NCBI GenBank assembly: GCA_963733195.1
Contig: CAVTCR010000081.1
Coordinates: 128,001 to 192,000, forward strand
Length of the DNA: 64,000 bases
Source of the DNA: an uncultured delta proteobacterium
Lineage (GTDB): Bacteria > Desulfobacterota > Binatia > Bin18
Direction of reading: 5' to 3'
A program made the translations under genes and the position numbers. The notes under the pieces are model-generated. The model was given only the letters and a program-made list of their open reading frames with translations. It searched no databases and was not told where the DNA came from. Positions 2,145 through 60,906 of this stretch are shown piece after piece. Positions within the stretch are counted from its first letter, which is position 1, and each line of letters opens with the position of its first letter.

Positions 2145-3322
2145 GATTCCTTCACACCTCCGACTGGCATGTCGGCCGCACGATTCGCAACCGTTCGCGA
2201 ATCGAGGAGCACCAGGCCGTGTTTGCCGAAATTATTGATATTGCCAAACACGAACAGGTCGATGCCGTACTTATTACTGGTGATGTTTTTCATGAACGTC
2301 GTCCGCCGCTTGAGGCTGAAGAACTGGTAGCGCAGACGTTAGCTGACCTCGCCCGTGCGCAGATTCCCTCGGTCATGATTCCTGGGAATCATGATGATCC
2401 CTATCGCTTGCGAACCCTCAAACCATTAGGCGACTTGGTCCAGGTCCACGTCGTTACGGACTTTAATGGTGATGTCTCGTCGCTAGTCGTACCAATCCAC
2501 TCTCGCGATGGCAAAGAAAAAGCACTGGTTGGTTGCCTACCATACTTATCGCCTCACTCGGTGTTAACCGCAGCAGAAGGTGTCGGAGCCTCAGAGGATG
2601 TTCGTCTTGCCACCTATCAGAGCAAAGTGCAGGATTATTTTCGTGCCTTGGAAGAGGCCATGAAACGGCAAGATCGTAATGCTGTGACCATAGTCCTTGC
2701 TCATGCGCATCTTGCTGAGTGTGAATTCGGTGGCGGTGAGTGGCGGTCGAGTGTCTATCCGGTCAGTGCTCGGTTTCTTCCAGCGCATGTACAATATGTC
2801 GCATTAGGGCACATGCATAAACCGCAAGTGATTCCTGGTGCCAGTGCACAGGCACGCTATGCGGGTTCGATCTTGCAGATGGACTTCGGTGAACGAGATC
2901 AAAAGAAGAGCGTCTGCCTTATTGAGGCGCATCCTAACAAACCAGCAACGGTTACTCCCATTGAACTGAGTGCTGGTAAATGGCTTCTCCGCCGCACTGG
3001 CACTGCCGAAGCGATTCTCGCACAAGCAAATGAGTTCAGCGATGCGTGGGTGGAGGTCGTACTCCAGCCTGACAAGCATACATTCGAACTTGCGGAACAG
3101 GTGCGAACCTTGCCTGGTGTTATTGCTATGCGCTTTGAGGAGGTGCAAGCCACGAGCGTGGGAAACGGAGAAGCAGGGAAACGGGGAAACGGTAACAAGC
3201 CAGCAGCCGAACTCTTTGCTGAATACTACAAAACCAAACGCAAAGCTGACCCCGATCCGCAGTTAATGGCATTGTTTGACCGACTGTATCAAGAGGAAAG
3301 CACGGCGAAGGATGAGGCATAA
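2141..3322 (+). CDS. sbcD: SbcD/Mre11 metallophosphoesterase nuclease
   Basis: MRFLHTSDWHVG, TGDVFH, GNHD, HAH, ALGHMH, YAGS motifs; ATGA overlap with herA stop at 2141-2144. Confidence 0.95.
   Translation: MRFLHTSDWHVGRTIRNRSRIEEHQAVFAEIIDIAKHEQVDAVLITGDVFHERRPPLEAEELVAQTLADLARAQIPSVMIPGNHDDPYRLRTLKPLGDLVQVHVVTDFNGDVSSLVVPIHSRDGKEKALVGCLPYLSPHSVLTAAEGVGASEDVRLATYQSKVQDYFRALEEAMKRQDRNAVTIVLAHAHLAECEFGGGEWRSSVYPVSARFLPAHVQYVALGHMHKPQVIPGASAQARYAGSILQMDFGERDQKKSVCLIEAHPNKPATVTPIELSAGKWLLRRTGTAEAILAQANEFSDAWVEVVLQPDKHTFELAEQVRTLPGVIAMRFEEVQATSVGNGEAGKRGNGNKPAAELFAEYYKTKRKADPDPQLMALFDRLYQEESTAKDEA
3160..3195 (+). repeat. Octamer array inside sbcD
   Basis: gggaaacg gagaagca gggaaacg gggaaacg gtaa, translated as GNGEAGKRGNGN. 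Confidence 0.6.
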
Positions 3323-3351
3323 TGCGTGAAACGTAATGCGTAAAGCGTAAA
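3320..3351 (+). repeat. Heptamer array starting at the sbcD stop
   Basis: taatgcg tgaaacg taatgcg taaagcg taaa. Confidence 0.8.
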
Positions 3352-3391
3352 AATTTGCTGCCCTTTTATTATCCAACCTCCCAAACCACAT

Positions 3392-12107: not shown

Positions 12108-12765
12108 ATGAGCGTGCATGCGCTAGTATTCGACCAGCCCCAAAATCTATCACATCACGCATGTGGACAACCTGCCATCTATCATTGCTGCTGATGGTAT
12201 CGGTTCGGATGCCCAACGAATCCGGCAAGGATTGGTGAACACCAATATCGGTATGTCGGAGATCAAAAGAAGAAGGTTGGCGTTGGTAGTCGGTTGCTGT
12301 CCGGGTACTACCGTTGGCGAATATGTGCCATTTTACTTCTGTCCACGCTCAATCATGTTGTTCCTCATTCATCGCGGAAATCATCCAGACCTACCTTATC
12401 GCGGAGGGCAACGACCGATCGTACATCTCGAAGCGGATCTCAACAGGGTGGTGCAGTGGGCTGAGGCTAATAATCGGCAATGGGCATTCAGCAAGAGCAA
12501 CGCTGGAGCCTATTACACAAAGTTCTTCAACCGACTCGACCAACTCGATGAGATTGACTGGGCAGCGGTGACTGCCCTAGACTTTCGCGACTCGATGGTA
12601 AAAGAAGGGAAGCAGGCGGAGTTTCTCGTATTTGATGACTTTCCCTGGCATCTCATTGAGCAGATTGGTGTGATTGATCAGCGAATGGCGGAACAGGTTG
12701 TTCCTCTGGTGAGCCAAGCGGCGTACCAACCTACCGTAAGCGTTCAACGAGTTTGGTACTATTGA
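12108..12765 (+). CDS. darT: DarT DNA ADP-ribosyltransferase toxin (DUF4433); 5' end has an apparent indel
   Basis: PKIYHITHVDNLPSI (from 12139), YVPFYFCPRSIML, KQAEFLV catalytic Glu motif. Confidence 0.9.
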
Positions 12766-12779
12766 GCGCCATAGGGGTC

Positions 12780-13831
12780 ATGGCCATGATTGAACTGAAA
12801 CACGACGATATTGTGACCGCGGATGCTGAAGCCTTGGTCAATACGGTGAACTGTGTTGGTGTGATGGGTCGTGGCATCGCCTTGCAATTTCGCAAAGCCT
12901 TCCCCGAGAATTTCACCGCCTACAAAATTGTCTGTGATCGCGGCGAACTCCGCCCAGGCCAGTTGTTTGTGTATGTGCAAGACCAACTGACCAACCCACG
13001 TTACATCATCAACTTTGCCACCAAAGATCATTGGAAAGGGAAGAGTCACCTCGATTACATCGACTCAGGGTTGAAAGCGCTCGTGCAAGAAGTGCGACAA
13101 CGAGGAATTCGTTCGATCGCGATTCCACCATTAGGTTGTGGTTTAGGAGGCCTTAGATGGAGTGACGTACGCCCGCGTATCGAGCATGCATTCAGTGTGC
13201 TGCCTAAGGTTCAGGTTCTGTTATATGAGCCGGACGGTGCGCCACAGGCTTCGGTCATGGCAAAAACACAGCAAGTCCCAAAATGACTGTTGGGCGAGCC
13301 GCTTTGTTGGGGTTAATGAATCAATATCTGGCCGCGCTGATGGACCCTTTCGTTTCCTTGTTAGAGATCCATAAGCTCATGTACTTCATGCAGGAAGCAG
13401 GAGAAAACCTCAAGCTACAGTACCGTAAGGGAACCTACGGTCCATACGCAGAAAATCTGCGACATGTCTTGAACGTCATTGAAGGACACTTCATCCGTGG
13501 ATACGGCGATGCAGAAGATGCTCCGGGTACCCAGATCGAATTAGTCCCAGACGCAGTCAGCCAAGCTCAGGCTTTTCTCCAGCATCATGCAGATACCCGT
13601 GCGCGTTTTGATCGGGTCGCCCATCTTGTTGAAGGATTCGAGACGTCCTTTGGTATGGAGCTACTCGCTACAGTCCACTGGGTTGCAACGCGTGAGGAGA
13701 GTGTTTCCATAGACGAGGCTATCGAGAAAACCTATGCGTGGAACAGCCGGAAACGTATGTTTGATCCGGCGCAGATTCGCATTGCTTGGGAAGTCCTCCA
13801 CCAGAAAGGATGGCTGTCCAAGGGGGCGTAA
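12780..13831 (+). CDS. darG: DarG macrodomain antitoxin, split by a 1-nt frameshift near 13283
   Basis: Macrodomain ALVNTVNCVGVMGRGIALQF, IINFATK, SIAIPPLGCGLGGL; C-domain LLEIHKLMYFMQ, YGPYA, GFETSFGMELLATVHW. Confidence 0.9.
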
Positions 13832-13840
13832 AGAAAAGCA

Positions 13841-19573: not shown

Positions 19574-19676
19574 AGGGGAAACGGCGAAATGGGAGAAAAG
19601 TAAAAAGTAGTCAGTAGAAAAAAGGCTTTGGACTTTGAACTTGGAACGTTAAACCAGAAACTAGAAACTTGAAGTT
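19574..19676 (+). repeat. Composite octamer/heptamer arrays between DUF485 and actP
   Basis: gggaaacg gcgaaatg; agtagtcagtag; ctttgga ctttgaa cttggaa cgttaaa ccagaaa ctagaaa cttgaag. Confidence 0.8.
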
Positions 19677-21236: not shown

Positions 21237-21347
21237 AACGTGATCATGGTGCGTGAAGCATAATGCGTGAAACGTAAAACGTGAGACGTAGGAGGAGGGC
21301 AAGAATGCCTTCTACTGACTACTGAATGCTGACTACCGACTACTGTT
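21234..21347 (+). repeat. Heptamer arrays between actP and maoC
   Basis: tgaagca taatgcg tgaaacg taaaacg tgagacg; tactgac tactgaa tgctgac taccgac tactgtt. Confidence 0.85.
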
Positions 21348-22247: not shown

Positions 22248-22258
22248 AGTTGGGGAAA

Positions 22259-22367
22259 AGTAATCAGTAGTCAGCATTCAGTAGCCAGTAGGGGAGAACA
22301 CGTCATGATTTCTTTTCCCATGCTGGCTATTGATTTTCGTGCTTTCGTTCCTCATTCATCGTTCATC
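22259..22367 (+). repeat. Heptamer arrays between maoC and the VOC gene
   Basis: agtaatc agtagtc agcattc agtagcc agtag; tcgttcc tcattca tcgttca. Confidence 0.85.
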
Positions 22368-25408: not shown

Positions 25409-25462
25409 TTTCACGTTTCACGACATTACGCGTCACGTGAACGTAAAACGTGTTGCGTGAGA
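25409..25462. repeat. Heptamer arrays between the DUF35 and thiolase-like genes
   Basis: tttcacg tttcacg..attacg cgtcacg tgaacg taaaacg tgttgcg tgagac. Confidence 0.7.
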
Positions 25463-27310: not shown

Positions 27311-27374
27311 GAGGCTGTAGACTAAAGGCGATTTTCTTTTCTCCCTCAAGCCTGCAGCCTCAAGCCTTTAGCCT
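27311..27374. repeat. Heptamer hairpin (AGGCTNN / NNAGCCT)
   Basis: aggctgt agactaa aggcg ... cctcaag cctgcag cctcaag cctttag cct. Confidence 0.75.
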
Positions 27375-27832: not shown

Positions 27833-27997
27833 AGTCCTGAGAGCAATGAGACATAAGGACTGAGAACTGAGTAACGAGTGATGAGTAATGAATAACGTGA
27901 TACGTAGTGCGTAATGCGTGACCCCTCATTCCGCTTTTTACGTTTTACGCTCTGTGTCTTTATCGTTTTCGTCACGTTTCACGTAATACGTCATACG
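27833..27997 (+). repeat. Composite heptamer arrays upstream of the rhodanese gene
   Basis: gactgag aactgag taacgag tgatgag taatgaa; cgtgata cgtagtg cgtaatg cgtga; ttttacg ttttacg; cgtcacg tttcacg taatacg tcatacg. Confidence 0.8.
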
Positions 27998-28331: not shown

Positions 28332-28427
28332 AGAATTCAGAATGTAGAATTCAGAATGCAGAATGAAAAAAGAAAGATTCTCCAATGCCTAATACCCAAC
28401 CCCCAACCCCTAACCCCCAGCACCCAG
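28332..28427 (+). repeat. Heptamer arrays at the rhodanese/CoA-transferase junction
   Basis: agaattc agaatgt agaattc agaatgc agaatga; acccaac ccccaac ccctaac ccccagc (translated). Confidence 0.8.
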
Positions 28428-29619: not shown

Positions 29620-29682
29620 GGTGAAACGTTAAAGCGTGAAACGTGAACGTACCACGTAACACGCATCACGGATTTCGCATTA
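29620..29682 (+). repeat. Heptamer hairpin between the CoA-transferase genes
   Basis: tgaaacg..taaagcg tgaaacg tgaacg; accacg taacacg catcacg gatttcg. Confidence 0.7.
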
Positions 29683-30926: not shown

Positions 30927-31439
30927 ATGGCAGTCAAAAGGCAAAGAGACAGTCGAGAGTCCAAGGTCCAAGATCTAGAGTCTTTCGCATTACGCATTAC
31001 GTGTTACGTGTTACGCACCCTTTGGCCTTTGGACTTGAGACTTTGGACTTCGTTCGTATTGCTATGGTTGTTCCTTACTCCGATTAGCGCTGCTGCGCAA
31101 ATGACGGGTGGGGGATGGACGATAAGCCTCTACGGTATGGTACAGGTTGAGCCAGGCAATGGTGTTACCACGCTGAAAGTCAGAGACGAACACATCCGTT
31201 TCGTCATTCATAACATCCAGTGTTCCGATCGAAACTTTTCAACCGGGCGTTTCCTGTCGGATGTGACCAATAGAGAGCCAGGTCTCTACATCAAAGGTCC
31301 GGAAGAATGGTTGGATTTGTTGATTAACGAACGTCCGGGCAAACGTGTCCTGCAAATGCGCGGGGCCTACTACCCAGACTCGCGCATGTTGCTCCTTCAT
31401 AAGCTGGAACGATTTCAGGGAACACCGATACCAAAGTAG
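30927..31439 (+). CDS. Hypothetical exported protein
   Basis: Hydrophobic stretch ending ISAAA-Q; N-region encoded by heptamer arrays; start uncertain. Confidence 0.55.
   Translation: MAVKRQRDSRESKVQDLESFALRITCYVLRTLWPLDLRLWTSFVLLWLFLTPISAAAQMTGGGWTISLYGMVQVEPGNGVTTLKVRDEHIRFVIHNIQCSDRNFSTGRFLSDVTNREPGLYIKGPEEWLDLLINERPGKRVLQMRGAYYPDSRMLLLHKLERFQGTPIPK
30951..31049 (+). repeat. Nested heptamer arrays in a signal-peptide region
   Basis: agtcgag agtccaa ggtccaa gatctag; cattacg cattacg tgttacg tgttacg; ctttggc ctttgga cttgaga ctttgga. Confidence 0.85.
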
Positions 31440-34544: not shown

Positions 34545-35100
34545 ATGGCGGTATCAAAGTTCAGAGTTCAAAGTTCAAAGTCCAGAGTTCAAAACTTTAA
34601 AGTCTCTAGTTTCTGGCTTCTGGTTCAAAGTCCAGAGTCCAGAGTCCGAACCTCAGCCTACTGGCTACTGGCTACTGGCTACTGACTACCGTTCCCGCGG
34701 CTTCACCCTCATCGAAATCATGGTGGTGGTGTTTATCTTAGGACTATTGGTGACTTTAGTCGCGCCAAAAGTGATGGGGAGAACCGACGAGGCAAAGCGG
34801 ACGAAAGCAGCGGCAGACCTGCGTGCCGTGCAGCAAGCGCTGAATCTCTATCGTCTCGATAATGGCGGCTATCCCACCACCGACCAGGGGTTACAGGCCC
34901 TGGTGACGAAGCCCCAGAATGGAGCGATCCCACAACGTTGGAATCCTGAGGGGTATCTCGAAAAGATGCAGACCGATCCTTGGGGCCATCCGTACATGTA
35001 TCTGAGCAATGGCGAACGCTATTCACTGAAGTCGCTTGGCGCAGATGGTGAGGAAGGTGGGGACGGAAAGTATGCAGATTTGGATAGTCGAGACTTATAG
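34545..35100 (+). CDS. gspG: Major pseudopilin with a repeat-encoded leader (SD-led ATG 34545 is 1 nt out of frame; in-frame ATG at 34525)
   Basis: G/FTLIEIMVV at 34699, YRLDNGGYPTTDQGLQAL, DPWG.PY, SLGADG. Confidence 0.93.
34553..34690 (+). repeat. About 19 heptamers forming the gspG leader
   Basis: ttcaaag/tccagag units, tttctgg units, tactggc x3 tactgac. Confidence 0.9.
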
Positions 35101-35720
35101 GGAGGAAGGAGGGAAACGGCGAAACAGGGAAACGGCGAAAGGGCGACGAACGATCTCTTTACTGTTTCACGTTTCATGTCTCTGACCCAAGCCTCAAGCC
35201 TCAAGCCTCAAACCCCAAAGGTTTTACCCTCCTCGAACTCTCCCTTGTCTTGTTCATCATTGGACTGTTAGTGACGATTCTTCTTCCTCGTTTTGGCGAT
35301 ATTGGTGGAGCACGTTTGGAGAGCAGTGCCCGGCGGCTGGCTGCATTAGTGCGCTACCTGAATGGCGAAGCAGCCTTCAGTGGTCAGGTTTACCGAATTA
35401 GTTATGACCTAGGGGAGCAGTCCTACGCGGTGCAGGTGTTAGTGCCGTCCCGTAGAGCAACCGAGTTCGTGGCTGATTCATCGCCGATGTCGCAGCCGGT
35501 GAGGCTACCGTCGGGTATCGCTTTTGCTGATATTCGCGTTTCCCAGGCTGGGCGGATGAATGCGGGGCAAGTGTTCACGCACTTTTATCCGCAGGGGTAT
35601 GTTGACCCGACAGTAGTGCATTTGCGCGACCAACAGGCACGGATGATGACCGTAATAATCCCGCCAATCACCGGCGAGGCGAAGGTGTATGAAGGGTATG
35701 TGGATGGAACGAACCGATAG
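35072..35720 (+). CDS. gspH: Minor pseudopilin; no in-frame ATG/GTG/TTG before the cleavage site as assembled
   Basis: G/FTLLELSLVLFIIG at 35220, FYPQG; overlapping ATG 35072 is out of frame by 1 nt. Confidence 0.85.
35111..35219 (+). repeat. Octamer plus heptamer arrays forming the gspH leader
   Basis: gggaaacg gcgaaaca gggaaacg gcgaaagg; gtttcac gtttcat; caagcct x3. Confidence 0.9.
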
Positions 35721-36243
35721 GCGTTTGGAGTTCAGAGTCCAGGACCAAAAGTTCGAGGTTCGAGGTTCGAGGTTCGAGGTCCAAAGATATTCAAAGTTCA
35801 AAGTTCGGAGTTCAAAGTCTACGCATCACGCAACACGCAACACGCAACACGGTTCAAGTCCCCAGTCCCCAGTCCCAAGCCCCAAGGGCTTTACCCTCCT
35901 CGAAGTCCTTGTCGCGCTGGCCGTCCTTGCTGTCGCGCTGGTAGGCTTGCTTGGCTTACACAATCGAAACCTGCTGCTGATGATACGAGCAGAGCGGCTG
36001 AGCACTGCGACTTTGCTTGCGCGCGAGGTGCTCACGCGTACGCAGCTAGAAGGTCAAAACGCTGCGAAGGTGACAAATGGTGACTTCTCTGCCTTTCATC
36101 CAGGTCAATATTCAGAGTTCCGTTGGCGTCGGACGGTGCGCCCCGCGCCAGTCGAAGGATTATGGGAACTCCGAGTTAATGTTTTGTGGGGAGAACGGGA
36201 AGACGAACGGTGCGAGTTGACGCTGTTTACACCGTTGAGCTGA
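35689..36243 (+). CDS. gspI: Minor pseudopilin with a leader of up to 67 aa encoded by repeats
   Basis: G/FTLLEVLVALAVLA at 35887, F.WR, V.V.W. Confidence 0.88.
   Translation: MKGMWMERTDRRLEFRVQDQKFEVRGSRFEVQRYSKFKVRSSKSTHHATRNTQHGSSPQSPVPSPKGFTLLEVLVALAVLAVALVGLLGLHNRNLLLMIRAERLSTATLLAREVLTRTQLEGQNAAKVTNGDFSAFHPGQYSEFRWRRTVRPAPVEGLWELRVNVLWGEREDERCELTLFTPLS
35724..35886 (+). repeat. About 22 heptamers forming the gspI leader
   Basis: ttcgagg x4, ttcaaag units, acgcaac x3, tccccag x2 tcccaag ccccaag. Confidence 0.9.
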
Positions 36244-36247: not shown

Positions 36248-36393
36248 AGTAGTCAGGAGCCAGTAGGAAAAAACGATGAACACGGAACGATGAATGATGA
36301 ACGGAGAACAGAATCCCTCTTTAATTCAGCAGTCAGGCTTCGGCATTCTGCGTTCCCGCTGTGCTGGCTACTGGCTACTGGCTACTGGCTACT
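36248..36393 (+). repeat. Heptamer arrays at the gspI/gspJ junction and in the gspJ leader
   Basis: agtagtc aggagcc agtag; acgatga/atgatga units; ctggcta x4. Confidence 0.9.
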
Positions 36394-41189: not shown

Positions 41190-43097
41190 ATGCCGCATAT
41201 TATTGGTACTGCCGGACATATTGACCACGGCAAAACGTCACTCATCCGTGCCCTCACCGGTCAGGAAACCGACCGCCTGAAGGAAGAACAAGAGCGTGGG
41301 ATTTCGATTGATCTGGGGTTTGCTTACATGGATCTGCCAGATGGCGAACGGGCCGGCATTGTCGATGTTCCCGGACATGAGCGCTTTATCCGCAATATGT
41401 TGGCTGGTGCGCACGGTATCGATCTCGTGCTGTTTACTATTGCTGCAGATGACGGGGTGATGCCGCAGAGTGAAGAACATCTCGATTTCCTGCATCTGCT
41501 CGGAGTAAAGAAGGGAATCTGCGTTATCACTAAAGCGGACCTAGTTGATGCGGCGCGTCTGGCTGAGGTACAAGAAGAGATTGAGATTCTGACGCTCGAC
41601 ACGACACTCGAAGGATCACCGATTGTTCCAGTCTCGTCGGTAACCGGTTCGGGGCTTGATCGTTTGCGTGCAGAGATTGCAACGCAGTTCCAAGCGTATG
41701 AGCGTCCTTCTCTACCCGGCTACTTTCGCCTGCCCGTCGATCGTACCTTTGTCGTCAAAGGACATGGCGTAGTAATCACCGGGACTGCTGTGGCTGGCAC
41801 AATCAGTGAAGGCGATACCGTTCGAGTTCTCCCCGGCGGTGAAGAGTCGCGCGTTCGCTCCATACAGGTGCATGGGCAATCGGTCTCGCAAGCGAAATGG
41901 GGCCAACGGGTGGCGCTTAATCTTACGGGGTTAGAGAAGAGTGTTCTCACGCGCGGCCATGTGATCTGTCATCCAAAACTGACCCTGACGACGGACCGTT
42001 TTGATGCTTTCGTGGAAATCCGTCCAGGCGCAGGGCGTGACATAGAGAATCACGAACGTGTACGTGTACACCTCGGAACGGCGGAAATCATCGGCAAAGT
42101 GATTATTCTCGATAGACGCGAGATACTTCCGCCCCGTTCGAGCGGCTACTGTCAGATCGTTCTAGAAGAGCCGGTGGTGGCATTCCGTGGTGACCGTTTT
42201 GTGCTGCGCAATCAAACTGCCCAAGGGACACTTGGAGGCGGTGAGGTTATTCTTCCTTTTGCCCAGCGCCACCGGCGTTCAGAGGAAGGCACTATCGAAC
42301 GGTTAATGCTCTTACGCTCGGCGGACCTCCTTCGTGCGTGTCGTGCTTATCTGGAAGCGCAAAATGCGTTTGCTTTGCCGTTGGAAGAAATCTATCAGGG
42401 AGTGAATGCGCGCGAAGAGGAGGTCGCGAAACTGCTTGCGCAAGACGCAGAGATTTTACCACTCCCTGACAAAGCCCATCCAGAGGCTTACTCAGTCGCT
42501 GCGAAATGGAAACGTGTCGTGATTGAAGTGACGAAGGTGTTAGCCGCATTTCATGAGGCGACCCCGTTGGCGAGAGGTATGGAGATGGAGTCACTGCGCA
42601 GCCAATTATCGTTCTCATTTACGCCCAAAATTTTTCGCGCAGTCATCGAAAAATTGGTGAGTGAGAAGGTTACGGTACGAGAGGAGAGCATTCTCCGGCT
42701 TCCCGCGCATAGTGTAAAACTGAGTGGCGGTGAACAAGAAACCGCGGCCCGTGTAGAGCGCCTCCTGCAAGAGGGTGGGTTTACTCCGCCAGAGGTAAAG
42801 GAACTCGAAGAGAAACTCAAGATTGCCCGTAAACAACTTACAGAGCTTCTGAACGTGCTGGAGTCGCGTGGTGCGATTGTGAAGGTTACGACGGATCTCT
42901 ATCTCAGCGGTGCAACGCTAGAAAAAGCGAAGACCACTTTGATTGATCATCTGACTATGCATGGGGAAATCGCTGCCGCGGCATTTCGTGACCTTTTGGG
43001 AGTCAGTCGTAAGACTGCGATTCCGCTCTTAGAGTACTTTGACCGCACTGGACTCACCCTGCGAGTTGGGGATGTCAGGAAACTGCGAAAAAAGTAA
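41190..43097 (+). CDS. selB: Selenocysteine-specific elongation factor
   Basis: IIGTAGHIDHGKT, DVPGHERF, TKAD, C-terminal winged helix SRK.AIPLLEYFD. Confidence 0.96.
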   Translation: MPHIIGTAGHIDHGKTSLIRALTGQETDRLKEEQERGISIDLGFAYMDLPDGERAGIVDVPGHERFIRNMLAGAHGIDLVLFTIAADDGVMPQSEEHLDFLHLLGVKKGICVITKADLVDAARLAEVQEEIEILTLDTTLEGSPIVPVSSVTGSGLDRLRAEIATQFQAYERPSLPGYFRLPVDRTFVVKGHGVVITGTAVAGTISEGDTVRVLPGGEESRVRSIQVHGQSVSQAKWGQRVALNLTGLEKSVLTRGHVICHPKLTLTTDRFDAFVEIRPGAGRDIENHERVRVHLGTAEIIGKVIILDRREILPPRSSGYCQIVLEEPVVAFRGDRFVLRNQTAQGTLGGGEVILPFAQRHRRSEEGTIERLMLLRSADLLRACRAYLEAQNAFALPLEEIYQGVNAREEEVAKLLAQDAEILPLPDKAHPEAYSVAAKWKRVVIEVTKVLAAFHEATPLARGMEMESLRSQLSFSFTPKIFRAVIEKLVSEKVTVREESILRLPAHSVKLSGGEQETAARVERLLQEGGFTPPEVKELEEKLKIARKQLTELLNVLESRGAIVKVTTDLYLSGATLEKAKTTLIDHLTMHGEIAAAAFRDLLGVSRKTAIPLLEYFDRTGLTLRVGDVRKLRKK

Positions 43098-43164
43098 GAA
43101 TGAAAAATTAAGAGTGAGGAATGAAAAACGGGAAAGGAAACTTCACTAATTCTCAACTCTTCAA
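43095..43164 (+). repeat. Heptamer arrays at the selB/selD junction
   Basis: taagaa tgaaaaa ttaagag tgaggaa tgaaaaa; aattctc aactctt caa. Confidence 0.65.
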
Positions 43165-43194
43165 CCTTCCTTCAGATTGCTCCAAAGGAGCTTT

Positions 43195-46433: not shown

Positions 46434-48116
46434 CCCGGATTATTCATGAGGAAGTGGGACGACACGGCTCGACTCTGCTAAGGTCTGAAGCTGTCAAGAC
46501 TTTCGGACCCTGCGCAAAGGAGCGAGCCGATGGCAGAGTGTATTACACAACTCTCGCTGGATTTCCATCCGACCGTCCCTCTGAAGGTGGCTTTTGATGC
46601 GCCCCATATCTCCAGTGATGGCGGGTGCGCTGTTACTACGCCAAATGGATGATCGCCTGGGGCTGAGTGAGCGGCTGGCGGCCCTGCTGCCTGATGAGCG
46701 TGATCCGCGCAAAGTCAAACATGACCGTCGTGAGCAACTGCGGCAGCGGCTCTACCAGATTGCCTTGGGGTATGCCGACTGCAACGACGCGGACCGTCTG
46801 CGGCACGACCCGTTGCTCAAGAGTGTGTGCGATCGCACCCCGCAGGCCGAAGGACTTTCCTCGCAACCGACGCTCTCGCGGTTAGAGAACGCGGTGGATG
46901 CGCGGACGCTACGGGCGTTCTTACGTGAGATCGAGGAACAGTATGTGAGATCCTTTACTGAAGCCCAGCCGTGATTGTCTTGGATATTGACTCCACCGAC
47001 GATCCCACGCACGGCCAGCAGCAACTGTCGTTCTTTCACAAATACTACGACCAGCACATGTATCACCCGTTGGTAATCTTTGACGGAGAACGGGGGCAGC
47101 TGGTGAGTGCAGTGCTGCGGCCCGGCAATGCCCATGCGGCCCGTGGGGCAATGGGCGTCATCCGGCGTATTATTCGGGGCCTCAAGCAGCGCTTTCCTGA
47201 CGTGCAGATTGTCGTGCGGGGCGATTCGGCGTTTGCCGTCCCGCGCGTGCTACGAATGATGGAGGAGCTGGATCGGGAGCTCGGCGGCATCGCCTACGTC
47301 TTTGGGCTGGCCCAGAATGCCGTCCTGCTCCGCGCTGGAGCCGTCGCGTTGACGGAAGCCCAGGGCCGCTTTCGGGCCGCCAAGCAGACCGTGCAACACT
47401 TCGACGCCTTTGCCTATGCGGCGGAGAGTTGGCCGCAGGCCCGCCACGTCGTGATGAAAGCGGAGGTCAGCGCGCAAGGCGCCAATCCGCGCTTTGTCGT
47501 GACCTCGCTCTCGGAATTTGCCCCCGCGCTGCTCTATCACGCCTATTGTGAGCGGGGCCAGTGTGAAAATTTCATCAAAGACTTCAAAAATGCGCTGCAG
47601 GCCGATCGCCTCTCGTGTTCCACGTTTGCGGCGAACTTCTTTCGGCTCCTGGAACACGCGGCCGCCTATGTGCTCTTCCACGCGCTACGCACCCAGGTCG
47701 CGCCGTTGGCCCCCAGCTGGGCCGGGCGCAGTTCGATACGCTGCGGCTGCAACTCTTGAAAGTGGCGGCCATTGTCTCACAGTCGACGCGTCGGGTGCTC
47801 GTGCGGCTCCCGTCCGCTTTTCCGTTGGCGCGCGTGTTCCGCCAACTCGCCACGACGCTCGCGGGGCTGCCCGTCCTGTCCTCCGCGTAATCGCGATCCT
47901 CCTCATAGAGAGTTTGTCCTCGTTTCGCTGTCGCCTTCGCGTCGGCAGGGAGAAGTTCGTCTACACCTGACTACGGACGCTTTGGATGCCCCTCGTCAGT
48001 CCTCGTTTTCCTTGTCATGGCCCTACCTCTAATCACTTTTCGTTACAATTGAAGCTCTTTTGCTGTTGGAGTAGACGACTTCCGACCTTCTGCTCTTCGT
48101 TCATGAATAATCCGGG
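46434..48116 (+). mobile_element. IS1380-family insertion sequence, 1683 bp
   Basis: Perfect 16-bp terminal IRs cccggattattcatga / tcatgaataatccggg; CTAG duplicated at 46430-46433 and 48117-48120. Confidence 0.93.
46530..47890 (+). pseudogene. IS1380 DDE transposase (about three frameshifts)
   Basis: GYADCNDADRLRHDP, LSSQPTLSRLEN, LDIDSTDDPTHGQQQ, VRGDSAF, YCERGQCENFIK. Confidence 0.9.
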
Positions 48117-51630: not shown

Positions 51631-53760
51631 ATGCAAGCGACAGAATCGGCTATTCTGCTACAGAATTTGGTCTCTCTCTCAGAGGGATTTTCACAGCTTG
51701 GCACACGGTTATCACAAGCGGCGAATGTCCTACAGGCGACGGGCATGCCACCGGCAAAGACGCTAATCGACGAGATCACTACCTCCCGCAATTCGTTTAC
51801 TGAATTGTGTGCAAAGGGCGTCGCTCTCGCTGAGGCTCTTGCCCTTTCGCCAGCACCCAAACCCGAAACGATTGTGTCGCTCAACGATCTCAAGTCGTTA
51901 TTGCAGACCATTACCCAGGCTGAGGAAAAGAGAAAGGCCATGCAAGAGCTGTCACAACGAGCCCTGGCAACGTTGGATCGGCTCTACGCGATTAGGCATC
52001 GAGAGCGTGATGTGTTCACGCCGTTAGCGGAATGTCAAATGCGTGGCACCGTGCTTCGCAATGCCATTACCGAGACCCCGTGGCCAAAGTTACATCCCAG
52101 CGTCGAAGAGTTAGCAAAAGCGGATAATCCGTTTGTTGCCCTCCTGACTCTCGTCGAACAAGGAGAGAAGCTTGAAGACGACCATTGTATGCGGTTGCAA
52201 GAGATTGTCGAACGTGCGTTTAACAAATCGCTTGCTATCGCTGCTTTACGGGGAAAGCTCACCTTCTTATCTGATAATGAACCTGTGCGAGAGATTCGGA
52301 CTATAAGCCCACAGTCGGCAACGAAAACTGAACGTAGTGGCATCCCTAACAGCACGCGACCGGGTTTGGAATCGTCCCCAATCAGCGTATCTGGCGGGGT
52401 GGTTCCCAAAGTCGAGAGTGAGAAACAATCAGCCGTATTCGCCGATGCACGTACTGTCAATAAAGAGATCAAGCCGGAGGTGCTATGGGCAAATGATCTG
52501 CCCCGTTCATTTTCCGAAGCGAGCGGCGAGAGCAAACCCTCTTCCCTTGCGGATATACAGAATGGGATGAAGGGCGTGAAAGCAGAACCGTCCTCTGCGA
52601 GGGAACCAGTGCAGTTTCGCATGGTGCCCGAAACTGGAGACGGGAACAGCGTCACATTTTCTGCGTCCACAATGACCGATGAACCAATTGCTCTAAATCT
52701 GGCTCCCCTCAGCGATACGCCTGAGTTACAGGACGATCCGATACTGATTCCATCTTCTGCCCCCACCATGACAGACCATGGAGCAGAGACAATAGGAGGC
52801 GGGAGTGTTGATGTATTCTATCGCTGCGAGGCAGACGACAAAGCGCAAAAGATCGCCAATATGTTACTGACGAGAGCTTATGGATTAGTAGAGGAGAAAC
52901 CTGCCTTTCTGCGGGACTTAGTGTGGCGGCTCATCTTTGAAGAGAAACTGAGCCTTGCCTTTCATGTCGCTCGTTGCCTAGAAATACAACACCCAGAGTT
53001 TTATCCACGGCTGCCGTCCTGGTTGCTCCGCACAATTGTTCTTGGCCAGCGTGTCCGGAATCCAGCGGGAGACATTGCCCGCCTCTTGAAGGACGATTTC
53101 GCTCGTTGTGATACTGACTGTCGCACAACGGGTGATAAGGGGTGGGATCTTGCAGTCGAGCTCCTTCTACTCGCAGGAGCATTCCTTCCTGCTCTACTTG
53201 CGCCTGACACACGGGCCTCAACCATTCTCCATGGTGTGTGCCTTGGCGACGGTCTAGAGAATCTCTCTACCTACTGTAATGCCATCGCATTGTACGGGGA
53301 TTTGCTTGTCCCTCTTGATCCGACGATGCTCAAGAAGTCAAGCCGGATGCAGGCGAAAGAATCTGTAGGCTTCATGCGTCGCTTCATCGGGAATCAGGAA
53401 AACGGTATACGAAAAGATGTTGTTTCAGAGCAAACAGAGCCGCTTCGCATTGAGCTTAGCAATCGACACCAGACAGTGATCGATGAACTGAGTCTTTTAA
53501 AAACCGCTAATTCCTCCCTTGCGTTGCTCGGTAGTCTTGCCTGTTGCCGACGAGCGATTGAGAACGTGGCCCTCCTCTTTGACCCAGAGACATCGTTTTC
53601 TTTCGATGAGCCGTTACCTCGCCCGCTCTTGAATGCGGACCTCTCGCGCATTCCGACGTTGGTATTGAACAAGCAAGGCGAAGTGGAGGGGATCGATCAG
53701 CCGGCGTTTCTAGAAAGTTTGTTAAGGCTGATAGCCAGCGGGTCACTGAAGATGCTCTAA
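51631..53760 (+). CDS. Hypothetical 709-aa protein
   Basis: Long ORF after a ggggg SD-like stretch; helical N-domain, Ser/Pro-rich linker, helical C-domain. Confidence 0.7.
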   Translation: MQATESAILLQNLVSLSEGFSQLGTRLSQAANVLQATGMPPAKTLIDEITTSRNSFTELCAKGVALAEALALSPAPKPETIVSLNDLKSLLQTITQAEEKRKAMQELSQRALATLDRLYAIRHRERDVFTPLAECQMRGTVLRNAITETPWPKLHPSVEELAKADNPFVALLTLVEQGEKLEDDHCMRLQEIVERAFNKSLAIAALRGKLTFLSDNEPVREIRTISPQSATKTERSGIPNSTRPGLESSPISVSGGVVPKVESEKQSAVFADARTVNKEIKPEVLWANDLPRSFSEASGESKPSSLADIQNGMKGVKAEPSSAREPVQFRMVPETGDGNSVTFSASTMTDEPIALNLAPLSDTPELQDDPILIPSSAPTMTDHGAETIGGGSVDVFYRCEADDKAQKIANMLLTRAYGLVEEKPAFLRDLVWRLIFEEKLSLAFHVARCLEIQHPEFYPRLPSWLLRTIVLGQRVRNPAGDIARLLKDDFARCDTDCRTTGDKGWDLAVELLLLAGAFLPALLAPDTRASTILHGVCLGDGLENLSTYCNAIALYGDLLVPLDPTMLKKSSRMQAKESVGFMRRFIGNQENGIRKDVVSEQTEPLRIELSNRHQTVIDELSLLKTANSSLALLGSLACCRRAIENVALLFDPETSFSFDEPLPRPLLNADLSRIPTLVLNKQGEVEGIDQPAFLESLLRLIASGSLKML

Positions 53761-53909: not shown

Positions 53910-54377
53910 TTAATCCAACGTAATAAACAGTGACTTGCGGGGTTTGCCGCCGACCGCGCGGCTAATGTGCCCTTGGCCGGTGGTGTCTTCGGCCAACAGA
54001 ATGTCGCCGCTTCGCAGAAGGCGCTTGGTGCCGTCACCCACTTCAATCTCTACTTCGCCCTCCAGGTTGACTACATACTGTCGTCGTGGTGCGTTGTGAA
54101 AATCAAAATTGTACGAGCCGTCAGTTTCGCGAAACACCACGCCAGTGGCCTTCTCTAATGCGGACATGAATCCAGCTTTGCCACCATCCTTTAGCTGAAC
54201 TTCGATATCCTCGAAATGCGATTTATTGTCTGCGCCGGTATATACACGGGTAATCTTCATCGTTCGTCCTCCTGTGTTGGCGAAAATTTCTTGTGGTCGT
54301 AGTGTGTCTGTGTTCCACATGGTCGTAAAGAACAGGGCGAGAATCGCTCCAACCCCAACCGCTTTCTTCGGTGACAC
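53910..54377 (-). CDS. Cupin-like protein (alternative start 54260)
   Basis: SHFED, FHNAPRRQYVV.L.G, GDILLAEDTTGQGH. Confidence 0.8.
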   Translation of the reverse strand: MSPKKAVGVGAILALFFTTMWNTDTLRPQEIFANTGGRTMKITRVYTGADNKSHFEDIEVQLKDGGKAGFMSALEKATGVVFRETDGSYNFDFHNAPRRQYVVNLEGEVEIEVGDGTKRLLRSGDILLAEDTTGQGHISRAVGGKPRKSLFITLD

Positions 54378-54543: not shown

Positions 54544-56830
54544 TTACTTTTCCGTCCCTGGCAAGAGAACACCACCTGATTTCTTATCTGGCGGGGCAGC
54601 AAAGGTTGGTCGATCAAGCTGTTTTTGCCACTGTGGCGGTGCTTTGTGGTCACGCAAGAAATTACGGAACCGGTCGCGCTCGCCAGACGAATGCGCAGCA
54701 ATCTCGGTTTCATCGCGCACGATGTGCGGGGTCAGAAAAATCAACAAATTGATCTTGTCATTATGCACATCGTCCGTACGGAAAAAATTCCCCAACACTG
54801 GCATGTCTTGGAGATACGGAACGCCAGAACGTCGTCGGACCGAGTTGTCGGAGATCAGGCCGCCAATAACCACCGTTTGTCCATTCTTCGCCACCACGGT
54901 CGTACTGGCCGAACGCACGGAGGTTGTGGGGCCGACGAGATCGGGATCACCAACCACAGTCGGTACAATCGCTGAGACTTCTTCATAGACATCGAGTCGG
55001 ACTGTCTCCCCTTCAGAGATCTGTGGTGTGAGCCGTAAGGTGATACCGACATCCTCGCGTTCTACATTAGCAAACAGGTTGTTGAGCTGAGAGGCATCTG
55101 TCGCTCGGCTGGTGATGAACGGTACGTTTTGACCGACTAGAATTTCAGCCTCCTGGTTATCAGCGGTCAATAATGTTGGGGCGGAGAGCACGTTGATGTC
55201 TCTACTGTTTTGCACGGCACGCAACAGTGCAGCTTGTGCAGGAACACGAGTACCATCGGGAAGTTCAATGGTTTTGTTACTCGCCGCAGCGAGCGAGTAA
55301 GCCTGAGAGGCTCGCGGGATTAGTTAAAGCTGTGTTTAAATCTTTAAAATTCGTGCGGCCAAGGGCGACACCCTCACCGCCTAGACTAAAGGCATATTGG
55401 AGTTCAATACCTAACTCCCGGGCTCTCGCCATACTAACTTCGAGAATAATCGCTTCGACGTAGACTTGCCGGCGACGGACATCGAGTTGTTCAATAACTG
55501 TCTTCAAGGTGGCGAAATCTTGTGGCGCGGCGCTAATAAGTAACGAGTTCGTCGTGGGATCTGCAGAAATAGTGACTTCGCTACTGAATTCTGGAGAGCT
55601 CGCGGAAACGGTACCTCCACCGGACGGTGCGGTCGGGAGTTGGGAAGAGGAAGGGGATCGCTCAGCTAATCCTGAACCATAGCGGTCGCTACTTCTGCCG
55701 AAACGTTGATCTCGAGTATAGCGCCGTTCGCGACGAGGAATATTGAGCGAACGGCTTTCTCCTGTGCTGCCGGTGCTACCATCAATTAAGTCTGCCAACA
55801 CTGGCAGTAGCTCTTCGGCATTGGCATATTTGAGCGCGTAGACATGAATCTTGCTGTGGCCTGGCGGAAGTGGGACGTCAAGCTGATGAACTAAACGGTG
55901 GACTGTTTTCAATTCTCGAGGGCCCCCCATGACAATGAGTGAGTTCGTGCGTTCATCGGGTAACACACGTATCGTCCGAGTGCTACTCGAGCTTGGTGGA
56001 GGGTTGTTTGTTGCAGCCGTGGTCGCTGCGGTTGTTATAATCTTGACCCGTGATCCAGTCGGGCTGTCGCTATTGCCCTGATCTTTCATGATTTCTTCAA
56101 TTTTCTTAGATAAATCCGTTGCAATGGCATGCTTGAGGGGAATCACCTCCGTGAGGCGCTCATATCCTTCGACATCAAGGTCCTCTAGCATGCCGAGTAA
56201 GCGCTTGACGTTCGTTGCCGCGTCGGTGAGGATTAACGAATTGGTTTGCGGGTACGGCAGCACTAAACCGTCGCCAGAAACCATCGGCTGTAGGACTTGA
56301 ACCATTTCGGCAGCGCTGACATGGCGTAAAGGAACTAATCGGGTAATAAATTCGTCTCCGACAGTGGCTAACGAACCATTATACAGGGTTGGCAGGCCAA
56401 CTTGTTTCGCTTCTTTACTCGGGACGATTTTTACCACTTGGCCACTTTGTACGGTGGTAAACCCTTTTACTTGCAGGACTGACTGAAAGATGGCGTAGGC
56501 TTCATCTGTGGTGACTTTGGTGGGAGAGATGACCGTGACTTTGCCACGCACTTTCTCATCGACAATAAAGTTTCGATGGGTGATCTCGCTGATGAACTGC
56601 GCCAGGACAGGGATATCGATGTCTTGAAAGTTCATCGTGACCAGGTTGTCTGACGATGGCGGCAGCGGCTTCTTGCCGTTGGTTGCAGGCGCGAACCCGT
56701 GGTGTTGTGTGTCGGCGTCGTCCACGCTGTCGTTCTGCGACTGCGGATGTTGTTGTGTCCAACCCACCGAGCCATGCACAAGCACGAGCAAGGTGGTCAC
56801 CAGACCGATCACATGATTAGCGAATTTCAT
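54544..56830 (-). CDS. gspD: Type II secretion secretin, frameshifted at about 55225-55295
   Basis: MNFQDIDI, VRGKVTVISP, DERTNSL, LDVRRRQVYVEAIILEV, SAPTLLT.DN.EA, VP.L.D.PVLG, IFLTPHIV. Confidence 0.92.
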
Positions 56831-57710
56831 AAGAAAGCGATGTCGGTTGCTGGTTACGAAGCACATCGACTCGGATTTGTGGGTGCCCTTGGAGATCTTG
56901 TAAGAGCTGAAAGGCGGTACTTGGGTCTGAAATTTCTACGCCGTTGACACGTTGGATCACATCTCCGTTTTTCAAGCCAATGCGATCAATGAGGCTGTCA
57001 GGTTTGATTTGAAACAGTCGGAAGCCCTGCACGACACCCTCTTGTAGCGAATAGGGAACCGCACGGACTTGGGTGAACAGTTCACTCAGGTTGTTGATCG
57101 CATGATCAACCTCTCGGCGGTCGATCTGGTAACTATCTTGCGCCAGTTGTCGCACGCCTTCCGGAGTACTTTGACTTGCGAGCGTAGAGATAGGGACGGT
57201 TGGCGGCTGTCCCGGTATTGCAGGTAAGTCTTTGGGCAAGAGGAGCGTTTCTCGTTTTCCGTCACGCTCAATGGTGATGCGATCCCAACCTACTTGCACC
57301 AGGATGATACCAGGAGCTACGAGATCTCCCTCGCGGTACAGCCCTTGCGTACGGGTGGTTTGGTTCTCGACGATGGCAAAGGCACGGTCCTGCATACTGG
57401 TGGCGGTGCCAAGGAGTCGGATATTTGCATTACTGGTGGCAGCGACGAGTGCTGTTCCTTCGTGCGTCGTCGGTGCTTTTGTAGAATTAAAAAGGTCGCG
57501 CACGTAGACAATCGCGTATGAGGAGAGCGGTGGCTTTGTTTGTGGAGTGCGAGAAAATGAAGTCTCATGTCGCTGCGGAACTGACGGCGAGAGCGCCAGT
57601 TTGGTGGCGACGACCGTGTTGACAGAGAGAGCGCAAAAGTACGCTAGTCCTGTTAACAGTGACACACGCGCACTGAGGAGAAGAACCCGCACACCTACCA
57701 CCACATCCAC
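56817..57710 (-). CDS. gspC: Type II secretion protein C (TM-HR-PDZ)
   Basis: N-terminal TM, LLGT...AFAIVE, PDZ GF.L..IKPDS...IGLKNGDVI..VNG. Confidence 0.88.
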   Translation of the reverse strand: MDVVVGVRVLLLSARVSLLTGLAYFCALSVNTVVATKLALSPSVPQRHETSFSRTPQTKPPLSSYAIVYVRDLFNSTKAPTTHEGTALVAATSNANIRLLGTATSMQDRAFAIVENQTTRTQGLYREGDLVAPGIILVQVGWDRITIERDGKRETLLLPKDLPAIPGQPPTVPISTLASQSTPEGVRQLAQDSYQIDRREVDHAINNLSELFTQVRAVPYSLQEGVVQGFRLFQIKPDSLIDRIGLKNGDVIQRVNGVEISDPSTAFQLLQDLQGHPQIRVDVLRNQQPTSLSYEIR

Positions 57711-59341: not shown

Positions 59342-59414
59342 TGTCTAGGTTCACATAAGAGAGGCTGGTACAATCGGGAAGGAGAGAGAGGGGTATCATG
59401 AGGAATAAAAGGCC

Positions 59415-60782
59415 ATGCCACTCGGACAGACTATAGAAGCTGAGACCAAGGAGGTGCGCGAAGCCACTGCGCCGCTCCACGCTCCACTCTCCGATCGTAA
59501 GCCTTTCTTTTCCCTGCCATACGAACTCTTCGTGAGCCTTCGTTACTTGCGAGCGAAGCGCCGTGAACGGTTCATCTCGCTGATTACGTTTTTCTCTACG
59601 CTGGGAGTGCTGCTAGGGGTGATGACGCTTAACATCGTTCTCGCGGTCATGACTGGTTTTGAAGAAGACTTGCGCAATCGTATTCTGGGCTTTAACCCTC
59701 ATGTCCTCGTCTCGAGCTATAGCAACACGATTACTAACTACAAGCCTGCGGTTGAGAAAGCAAAGCAGGTACCGGGAGTCATTGCTGCGACTCCTGTTGT
59801 GTATGGCCAGGTGATGGTTAGCTCGCGTCAGCGCGTATCCGGTGTTGTCGTGCGCGCAGTCGAGCCAGAACTCGCCAGCTCAGTCGTGAACGTTGTTGCC
59901 CACGTCGGAGTCGGCACCTTGGACGATCTCGGGAAAGAACGAGACATCACCATTAGTGAAGAAGGAGAAATGCGCAGCGTGCGTCTCTCTGGGGTCGTCA
60001 TCGGTGAAGAGCTACGAAAGCAACTGGAAGTGGAAGTTGGTGAACCGATCAGCCTCGTGTCTCCGTTACAGACGACTCCTGGGCCACTTGGGATGGTGCC
60101 AAAGGTAAAACGTTTCTTTGTTGCTGCTGCATTTAAGTCTGGGATGGTCGATTATGACGGCACGCTGATTTACATGGGGCTGGCTGACGCGCAGAAGTTT
60201 TTTGCGATCGGCGACCAGGTCACTGGTATCGAAGTACGAGTCCAGGACCCCTACAACGCACCAGAAGTGGCGAACGTGTTACAGTCGCAGCTCGGCATTC
60301 CCTATACAGCGCGTGACTGGACGAAGATCAACAGTAACATCTTTGTTGCGTTGAAACTGGAGAAGTTCGTTTACTCGCTTGTGATTCTACTTATCGTGCT
60401 GGTGGCTGCGTTCAACATCATTGCCACGCTGATTATGGTGGTGATGGAAAAGCGCAAAGATATTGCTGTGCTCAAGTCGATTGGCGCAACCAGCAAATCC
60501 ATTAGTCGCATCTTTATTTTCAAAGGATTCGTGATCGGTGCGATTGGTGCGCTCTTGGGCACTGTGTGTGGCTATGGTGTGTGTTGGATGATGCAGGAGG
60601 GATACATTCGTGTGCCATTGCCTCCCGATGTGTTTTACGTCAATACCGTGCCGATCAAAATCTACTCAGAGAATTTTCTCCTGGTCGGAGCCGCAGCGTT
60701 GCTCATCTGTTTGCTTGCCACCATTTATCCTGCACGCCAAGCTGCGAAACTCTCACCGGTAGAAGTGATCCGCTATGAGTAA
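59415..60782 (+). CDS. lolE: Lipoprotein-releasing ABC permease LolC/E
   Basis: RYLRAKR, VMTGFE, VAAFNII.TL.M.V.EK..DIA.L, YPA..AA...P. Confidence 0.9.
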   Translation: MPLGQTIEAETKEVREATAPLHAPLSDRKPFFSLPYELFVSLRYLRAKRRERFISLITFFSTLGVLLGVMTLNIVLAVMTGFEEDLRNRILGFNPHVLVSSYSNTITNYKPAVEKAKQVPGVIAATPVVYGQVMVSSRQRVSGVVVRAVEPELASSVVNVVAHVGVGTLDDLGKERDITISEEGEMRSVRLSGVVIGEELRKQLEVEVGEPISLVSPLQTTPGPLGMVPKVKRFFVAAAFKSGMVDYDGTLIYMGLADAQKFFAIGDQVTGIEVRVQDPYNAPEVANVLQSQLGIPYTARDWTKINSNIFVALKLEKFVYSLVILLIVLVAAFNIIATLIMVVMEKRKDIAVLKSIGATSKSISRIFIFKGFVIGAIGALLGTVCGYGVCWMMQEGYIRVPLPPDVFYVNTVPIKIYSENFLLVGAAALLICLLATIYPARQAAKLSPVEVIRYE

Positions 60783-60906
60783 GTTCAAAGTTTAAAGATT
60801 AATGAACGTGAACGATGAATAGCAAAGGAAGAAAGGTTAGAGCGACAGTTTTTTTCTCGTTCTTTTTCTCTCACTGACTACTGAATGCTGACAACTGATG
60901 ACTACT
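60780..60906 (+). repeat. Heptamer arrays at the lolE/lolD junction
   Basis: ttcaaag tttaaag; atgaacg tgaacga tgaatag; cactgac tactgaa tgctgac aactga. Confidence 0.8.

Follow-up and report, generated by a model that had tools for sequence, protein, structure and literature searches.

Short tandem arrays at gene junctions of a Binatia genome as probable arms of a small PF05635 cassette and its gene-less copies

We analyzed a 64,000-nt stretch of DNA from an uncultured delta proteobacterium of the Binatia (contig CAVTCR010000081.1; C81:128001-192000 in our numbering, ‘the window’ in what follows) together with the rest of its 6.95-Mb genome, an assembly of 87 contigs that is 93% complete and has ∼53% GC. 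Many gene junctions in the window carry short tandem arrays of 7-nt and 8-nt units. These arrays are probably the arms of a small selfish cassette built around a gene of the PF05635 family (S23p four-helix-bundle proteins), together with dispersed gene-less, non-autonomous copies of that cassette. We observed a fixed layout and polarity of the arrays, a vocabulary of units common to arrays and cassettes, filled, stump and empty alleles, replacement of one unit family by another in place, and a limit on array length. Genomes are designated below by G numbers (G000 is the genome analyzed here), contigs by C numbers and individual loci by L numbers.

In the full element, an opening arm made up of some five words of 7 nt (8 or 9 nt in some cases) would be followed by a PF05635/S23p gene that lacks a promoter and then by a closing arm, the reverse complement of the opening one; it would be placed right after a stop codon and read from host transcription. 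A profile search found 10 PF05635 matches at eight loci of the genome, all outside the window. At each of the eight an opening array lies upstream of the gene and its reverse complement downstream, with a unit that differs at nearly every locus. With bracketing defined as at least eight reverse-complement 7-mers between the flanks, complementary arms were present at 8/8 loci of this genome, at 50 of 68 loci in relatives and at 61 of 79 taken from many phyla; among shuffled pairs the rate was 3.3% (the 79 loci come from the best 80 of at least 569 matches; 2 of 157 loci lacked a flank and were left out). The arms have periods of 7 (190 arms), 8 (27) and 9 nt (20), and the cassette gene is co-directional with the gene upstream in 87 of 96 cases. 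A preliminary description of the window had listed a four-helix-bundle protein among possible partners of the arrays, and comparison with Uma2 genes bears out this choice: none of 22 Uma2 loci was bracketed, and the two with one array are near the random rate of 7.6%. Uma2 was therefore rejected as a partner gene, despite one Uma2 gene of G018 that lies among arrays. GxxExxY (PF13366) was rejected as well, having zero matches in the genome; DUF559 has two.

Unit families of the window recur as cassette arms: AGTAG (L046, L078, L108), TTCAAAG (L007, L092), GGGGATT (L051), CGATGAA (L082), ACTGAGT (L006, L096), AGGCTG (L080), the GGGAAACG octamer (L101, L105) and CGT (L088). Intact PF05635 genes of this genome include those at C62:337157 and C63:35727, but the genes also decay in place. 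At C77:3070 arms surround a 10-codon stump of a PF05635 gene, which came from comparison of orthologues, and a candidate ninth copy, decayed and frameshifted, lies between AGTAG arms at C50:106850-107150 (frames judged by eye; the nhmmer match reaches only E=0.55). An automated search for gene stumps between arms returned just the two genes already known among 109 pairs.

Some cassettes are unusual in other respects. In L059 (G009) and L063 (G015), two of 151 loci, the whole cassette lies inside a DNA-methyltransferase open reading frame (ORF), which stays open across the four-helix-bundle gene in another frame. In L005 (G000, C7:79628-79943), a cassette within a DNA-methyltransferase ORF, the two frames are interrupted at nearly the same point, as would happen with an assembly error. 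The arms of L184 (a Nostoc plasmid), L118, L155 and L157 seem to be in opposite or non-complementary order. Finally, L089 (G010:C14:91550-94850) resembles a true diversity-generating retroelement (DGR): a weak PF05635 match stands between two similar repeats, with a reverse transcriptase match at 91634-92272 and no heptamer arms (by eye).

Across the genome, 358 arrays of period 7 reached a score of at least 12, and an order-5 Markov control of 1.67 Mb had none at period 7 or 8. At the same score we counted 44 arrays of period 8 and 108 of period 14, the double of 7; any other period from 4 to 15 gave at most 23. A score threshold of 9 raised the number to 937 arrays in 725 loci (0.135 arrays per kb); strong array loci number 251 among 3288 intergenic gaps. 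Among 178 loci with several arrays, the purine-rich array came first and the pyrimidine-rich one last in 104, the reverse order occurring in 10 (p=7e-21); this layout is identical when read from either strand. The ordered, multi-family and non-random character that had been claimed from the window is upheld. As to position relative to codons, the start lies no more than 40 nt from a stop codon in 107 of 447 arrays for the purine-reading form and in 24 of 447 for the pyrimidine-reading form, with 3.7% for random positions (ORF calls were crude). The stop codon frequently belongs to the first repeat unit.

A complementary partner within 150 nt was found on the inner side of 110 of 446 strong arrays and on the outer side of two, with a median spacer of 31 nt. 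The two halves of a locus had been thought unable to pair locally, which is correct for a part of the loci only. Five window loci fold between arms, at 22248 (z=-4.05), 27310 (z=-3.21), 36245 (z=-2.61), 29618 (z=-2.10) and 30930 (outer arms, z=-1.95); five others, at 19574, 34550, 35105, 35725 and 60778, have no arm-to-arm fold (z from -0.65 to +1.1). Some loci hold a solo arm (3320, 27859). Pairing between distant junctions, proposed in the preliminary description as long-range RNA contact, was rejected: beyond cassette length (∼450 nt) there was no order bias, with nine R..Y and seven Y..R matched pairs at ∼0.9-2.2 kb. The arrays are not an assembly artefact, as an independent soil-metagenome contig spans 35790-36393 with eight substitutions and no gaps (only some of the gsp arrays are covered by it), and arrays occupy these junctions in other assemblies too.

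The number of units in a run is restricted. In ten families we counted 94 runs of two units, 129 of three, 156 of four, 122 of five, 26 of six, six of seven and one of ten, the counts at two and three units being biased by detection; geometric decay from four units upward was rejected (p=2e-10). Cassette arms drop likewise after five units (four, 70; five, 66; six, 19; seven or more, 16). Of 24 five-unit runs in the AGTAG family, 16 have the odd unit CAGCATT in third position (slot 3; p=0.0005). A 30-nt AGTAG-block pattern, which with the two mismatches allowed also counts plain repeats, has matches in 16 of 41 genomes, all of one taxonomic family, and 15 of the 16 have PF05635 matches. The shared slot-specific block points to copying from a template.

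The words also go with the proteins. Sharing of arm words climbs from 14% at protein identity below 30% to 63% at 60-65% and 96% at 70-80%, across phyla too; 18 of 144 aligned loci without a shared periodic word were left out of this comparison, and kin are not independent in it. A quick tree with many open forks served only to see that word classes cluster. The monomer predicted for a PF05635 protein is all-helical (pLDDT 94), with template modelling (TM) scores of 0.86 to 2GSC, 0.77 to 2RLD and 0.73-0.74 to Avd (4DWL/8UB7), its identity to Avd being 9%. The solved homologues 2GSC and 2RLD contain five chains each, from which we infer that the protein of this genome would be a pentamer too. 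By analogy with Avd, we lean slightly to the view that such a pentamer binds single-stranded RNA or DNA at five evenly spaced words, each crevice between subunits taking one. Binding of this kind would set the five-unit length and would tie each protein subfamily to its own word.

One could suppose that the arrays are a by-product of mutation in which the protein has no part: slippage would seed 7-nt runs, template switching would invert an arm, purifying selection would leave the runs in spare DNA, and PF05635 would hitchhike. Slippage is seen at work in long perfect expansions of G014 and G018, heptamer excess is reported to be widespread in bacteria (cited in the accessible text of PMC4692102), and seven of the eight families have no slot pattern. 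Still, we regard this explanation as quite unlikely in view of the fixed polarity (110 inner against two outer partners), the drop after five units, the slot-specific block common to many genomes, bracketing that is specific to PF05635 and absent at Uma2, words that track protein subfamily across phyla, and the pilin leaders described below, which in genomes of other taxonomic families are nearly free of arrays.

Comparison with relatives revealed filled and empty sites. Of 69 filled loci in relatives, 31 map by both flanks to this genome, collapsing onto 19 sites: three are filled here, one is a stump with arms, seven are gene-less doublets of a different family, one is a solo arm, two are degenerate, four are array-free and one is unclear (by eye). 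At the 29617 junction in the window, six genomes (this one, G001, G002, G006, G010 and G018) have six different complementary pairs, four relatives having other families and G010 a CGT variant (by eye). At 19572, 21236 and 60782, members of the genus have the outermost block in common but not the inner ones, a sign that newer blocks may land inside older ones. Equivalent junctions are array-free in G010 (19572 and 22247) and in G006 and G018 (lolE/lolD); the arrays are therefore dispensable. No target-site duplication was evident at array-free orthologues, which are only ∼75-80% identical. In G019, 34 matches belong to the GGG family and the only PF05635 gene has GGG arms, while three congeners have no GGG matches. 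At L225 (lolE/lolD of G002), L053, L070 and L077 we saw longer palindromic elements similar to repetitive extragenic palindromic (REP) sequences between or beside the heptamer arms, so centres of doublets attract other small repeats too.

How the selfish cassette would spread is a matter on which we are more tentative. Arms and doublets could move and overwrite each other at the DNA level by host recombination or conversion, with old arms as landing pads and slippage adding or removing units; this has a fair claim on the data, yet we would not quite put our weight on it. Serial and nested arrivals followed by deletions would then produce layers of mixed families in which opening arms are always on the left and closing arms on the right. 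The host would tolerate them where they are harmless: after stops, before starts, in cleaved prepilin leaders and in protein loops. Alternatively, spread could be RNA-templated, the pentamer acting as Avd does, holding arm RNA and lending it to a borrowed reverse transcriptase whose cDNA block overwrites arms. The fold common with Avd, a required cofactor of DGR reverse transcriptase, the co-direction of cassettes with transcription, the 12 matches to PF00078 (reverse transcriptase) in this genome and the homing-like replacement of whole blocks agree with such a route. None of the 12 PF00078 matches lies at any of the eight cassette loci. The route is nevertheless very doubtful: no reverse transcriptase tracks the arrays, G038 having 11 such matches while both tested array patterns are absent from it; the protein is 9% identical to Avd; and the DGR-like avd locus of a relative (L089) is armless. 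Furthermore, array-bearing G006 and G020 (82% and 95% complete) have no PF00078 match, which tells against the repeat-adding reverse transcriptase of the preliminary description as well.

The same allele comparison bears on a third explanation, a host regulatory network. PF05635 pentamers, or another host factor, would be domesticated RNA-binding regulators, the arrays would be selected operators or processing stems of the RNase III type, by which the relative amounts of operon segments are adjusted, and the arms of the gene itself would be autoregulatory. Arrays do hug stop and start codons in core operons, matched doublets give long stems, outer blocks persist across a genus, RNase III cuts the heptamer-bearing stem of the intervening sequence (IVS) in Coxiella 23S rRNA (accessible text of PMC4990558), and regulatory roles have been proposed for arrays of Geobacter and Beggiatoa. 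We consider such a network unlikely all the same: at a given junction, nearly every genome in the comparison has a family of its own, some relatives are array-free at these very junctions (G010 at 19572 and 22247; G006 and G018 at lolE/lolD), arrays occur also in prepilin leaders and protein loops, and the genes decay in place.

Tandem Repeats Finder and our own scans gave 17 clear array loci between 3160 and 60906 of the window and two weak ones (45790, 59473); their unit families match those listed in the preliminary description. The clear loci are as follows (strand after the coordinates; a point where none is assigned).

3160..3192, +: solo octamer arm (GGGAAACG ×4.1), translated in frame as part of a loop close to the C-terminus of SbcD; at this spot the orthologues of G001, G002 and G018 have other octamer-like runs, and that of G003 has none (by eye).
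3320..3351, +: opening arm of the CGT-word family (×4.6), beginning at the sbcD stop codon, with no closing arm before sbcC; doublets of other families at this junction in G001, G002, G003 and G018.
19574..19673, +: layered locus between a DUF485 gene and an acetate-symporter gene, with degenerate opening arms and closing arms CTTTGGA ×3.1 and AAACTAG ×3.3; last block common to G001 and G002, inner blocks differing; the G010 junction is short and array-free.
21258..21345, +: mixed doublet, opening CGTGAAA ×3.4, closing five-unit reverse AGTAG block (CTACTGA ×4.9); closing block common to G001 and G002, opening blocks differing.
22259..22367, +: five-unit AGTAG block, partial complement at 22323-22333, then TTCATCG ×3 (fold z=-4.05); in G001 the same AGTAG block stands upstream of a four-helix-bundle gene as its arm (L078).
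25409..25462, point: degenerate CGT-word arrays at a thiolase/OB-fold gene junction of a minus-strand operon; clear doublets in G001, G002, G010 and G018.
27311..27374, point: matched doublet, AGGCTG opening arm and CAAGCCT ×3.7 closing arm (fold z=-3.21).
27859..27919, +: opening arms only (ACTGAGT ×5.3, CGTAGTG ×2.4), before the rhodanese start at a divergent junction.
28332..28427, +: mixed doublet, an AGAATGC run from the rhodanese stop and CCCAACC ×4.7 within the N-terminus of the next CoA-transferase ORF; different combinations in G001, G002, G010 and G018.
29621..29670, +: matched CGT-word doublet between two CoA-transferase genes (fold z=-2.10).
30952..31050, +: nested locus, outer GTCCAAG and CTTTGGA arms pairing (z=-1.95), inner CGCATTA ×4.6 unpaired.
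34554..34689, +: layered arrays in the GspG prepilin leader (TCAAAGT ×5, AGTCCAG ×2.7, CTACTGG ×4.6).
35110..35219, +: GspH leader, octamer opening arm and CAAGCCT ×4.6 closing arm; an in-frame start is absent in this assembly.
35728..35886, +: GspI leader of 66 residues, translated in frame; blocks GTTCGAG, TTCAAAG, ACGCAAC and AGTCCCC of 3.4-4.4 units each.
36248..36393, +: gspI/gspJ nested locus, outer AGTAG arm pairing with CTGGCTA ×4.3, inner AACGATG ×4.6 (z=-2.61).
43089..43173, +: selB/selD locus; an opening arm of AAGAATG type lies at the selB stop, and a degenerate closing arm precedes selD; G002 has the same family, G001, G003 and G018 have others, and no array is clear in G010 (by eye).
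60781..60906, +: layered locus between lolE and lolD, opening arms TTCAAAG and CGATGAA, with a reverse AGTAG block last; outer blocks common to G001; junctions of a few bases, array-free, in G006 and G018.

At the sbcD/sbcC junction of G018 we also saw a Uma2 nuclease gene after a doublet and before a closing array (L234, G018:C569:6623-7632).

Placement at gene junctions, as first described, holds for most of these loci; the exceptions are the in-frame array inside sbcD at 3160-3192 and four gsp loci in prepilin leaders. Arrays of gspG, gspH, gspI and gspJ sit between the start and the cleavage motif. In 11 genomes of the taxonomic family we found 34 array-bearing leaders, and an in-frame ATG is kept in 28 of the 34 (p=6e-9 against one third, with kinship ignored); 12 genomes of other taxonomic families have mostly short leaders and no arrays except two 2-unit traces. 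Removal of the prepilin leader is an established processing step, and the leader arrays are presumably translated in most cases and then cut off with the leader. The six out-of-frame leaders are gspG in G000, G001, G002 and G014 and gspH in G000 and G002. In four of seven array-bearing genomes the conserved Shine-Dalgarno-ATG pair of gspG does not share the reading frame of the mature pilin, and gspH is affected in two (in the window, 34525-34700 and 35060-35220; also L012, L013, L020). Such leaders may represent errors, dead genes or 7-nt phase switching of type II secretion; independent contigs have no indel at the gsp arrays they cover, which are not all of the arrays.

Several observations weigh against the arrays being arms and copies of a selfish PF05635 cassette. 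Neither binding nor movement of the cassette was observed, both being deduced, and the protein has no known catalytic activity. Some 725 array loci stand against 8-9 PF05635 genes, and for CGT, AAAAGTC and CGATGAA, all abundant families, no cognate gene was found in this 93%-complete assembly. No window junction holds a PF05635 gene in the relatives examined, where most junctions carry arrays of other families; descent of window sites from a full cassette is therefore conjectural. G016 has arrays and no PF05635 match, and seven of 23 genomes without either tested array pattern nevertheless have PF05635 matches. With one mismatch allowed, 443 of 525 arrays match the pooled arm vocabulary, against 377 when reversed (exact matches, 166 against 60), so that the one-mismatch match is unspecific. 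First and last units are within one mismatch of complementarity in only 25 of 104 R..Y loci (shuffle mean 8.3, maximum 20), meaning that matched doublets exist side by side with mixed layers. G014 and G018 contain perfect runs that exceed 10 units, so five is not a hard cap, and the slot-specific pattern is confined to one of eight families tested. The correlation of protein and word could reflect mere co-inheritance of a transferred cassette, without binding; orthologous PF05635 genes at one locus alter much of their unit.

The window otherwise contains sbcDC, a type I restriction-modification/DarTG island, catabolic genes, a type II secretion operon, selB/selD, an IS1380 region, gspCD, lysS and lolE/lolD. 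The island is free of arrays over 10.8 kb, as was noted from the beginning; this is weak evidence, as ∼1.5 arrays would be expected there at the genome rate. Five ORFs are split in two: darG (12163-13831), an amidase (17526-19186), gspL (38037-39558), gspD (54544-56866) and the IS1380 transposase (46594-47759). Single-base errors are therefore likely, the assembly being prone to indels. ORFs of 569, 192, 709 and 155 aa at 435-2144, 45823-46401, 51631-53760 and 53910-54377 have no NCBIfam or Pfam match, and an Rfam scan of the window gave zero matches. Upstream of the selD ORF called at 43408, a TGA at 43218-43250 is apparently in frame and is conserved in G001, G002 and G018 (by eye). This TGA, in the N-terminal part of selD, is probably a selenocysteine codon, in which case selD would start near 43196.

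The cassette would join two old puzzles, the origin of short 7-base repeats and the role of the widespread S23p/four-helix-bundle protein, for which a structure was released in 2006. The long, unusual N-terminal extensions that prepilins and other genes have in these genomes would find an explanation as well. As each cassette hands its protein its own candidate ligand, binding, stoichiometry and specificity are testable together; if the code holds, these would be a natural family of small ring proteins with swappable specificity for nucleic-acid words.

Dispersed heptamers of a related class are known from cyanobacteria as short tandemly repeated repetitive (STRR) sequences. According to the accessible parts of the respective papers, Geobacter metallireducens has several classes of four-to-five-unit hepta- and octamer sites, mostly opposite-strand pairs (PMC2700814); GGGAATC arrays of Xanthomonas, mostly of four units, form 70 convergent pairs near stop codons, the G-rich form directly after a stop codon and its complement before a start (PMC4692102); and Beggiatoaceae have TAACTGA repeats, with other candidate binders suggested (PMC4679880). 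Regulator sites or quadruplexes were proposed for them (PMC2700814, PMC4692102, PMC4679880). With such paired arrays already published, ours do not amount to a wholly undescribed system. They are like those of Geobacter and Xanthomonas in having units of 7-8 nt, four to five copies and opposite-strand pairs, and like Geobacter in having multiple classes per genome; a 7-8 nt unit far above chance, a mode of four to five units and codon-adjacent convergent pairs were all found here. They differ from all of these, STRR repeats included, in the presence of at least ten families and of layered mixed loci. A term search in the accessible texts on Xanthomonas and Beggiatoa brought up no four-helix-bundle gene, and we found no literature link of PF05635 genes to dispersed heptamer arrays, subscription journals and supplements (e.g. 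Geobacter Table S4) being largely outside the search.

A close gene-bearing parallel is the 23S rRNA IVS. In Coxiella, heptamers precede the S23p ORF, the IVS is cut by RNase III and the protein is a homopentamer (accessible text of PMC4990558). ORF-bearing IVSs of Coxiella and Leptospira share with our cassettes a PF05635 ORF within terminal complementary arms and decay of the ORF, the tandem heptamers of the Coxiella arm being variable in number. The cassettes described here lie at protein-gene junctions and inside ORFs rather than in an rRNA helix, and the window copies are ORF-less; they do not always need removal from RNA, since whole cassettes are read through in another frame. In the P6b stem of the Nostoc trnL intron, one heptamer class (TDNGATT or NNTGAGT) was repeatedly replaced by the other (accessible text of PMC4476775). 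A hairpin site, replacement of a whole class and similar words are found in this genome too; there, one locus and two classes are involved, whereas here there are hundreds of loci, many classes and a candidate partner gene. Avd, which binds flipped-out bases in crevices between its five protomers and is a required cofactor of DGR reverse transcriptase (accessible text of 10.1101/2023.10.23.563531), has the same fold and is a pentameric RNA binder; low identity and the lack of a linked reverse transcriptase, template or variable repeat set the cassettes apart from it.

One could speculate further that all these belong to one class of transposase-free selfish elements, in which an Avd-like pentamer reads five words 7 nt apart by a subfamily code and drives insertion or in-place overwriting of 30-35 nt arm blocks. 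Such a class might be the general origin of bacterial heptamer repeats (STRR, Geobacter, Xanthomonas, Beggiatoa), of Nostoc P6b class switching and of ORF-bearing rRNA IVSs, with Avd a relative recruited by DGRs; we offer this extension with considerable reserve. In organization, a close analogue is REPIN/RAYT, where inverted repeats flank a few genes and intergenic DNA contains inverted doublets by the hundred that have no gene. Dispersed inverted doublets with rare gene-bearing copies are common to both, but here the arms consist of periodically repeated words instead of palindromic REPs, and they enclose a gene for an all-helical pentamer subunit instead of an HUH tyrosine transposase. As repeats, the arrays are of a class already known yet unexplained, and they behave like REPIN-type non-autonomous copies of an IVS-like cassette, being members of neither family.

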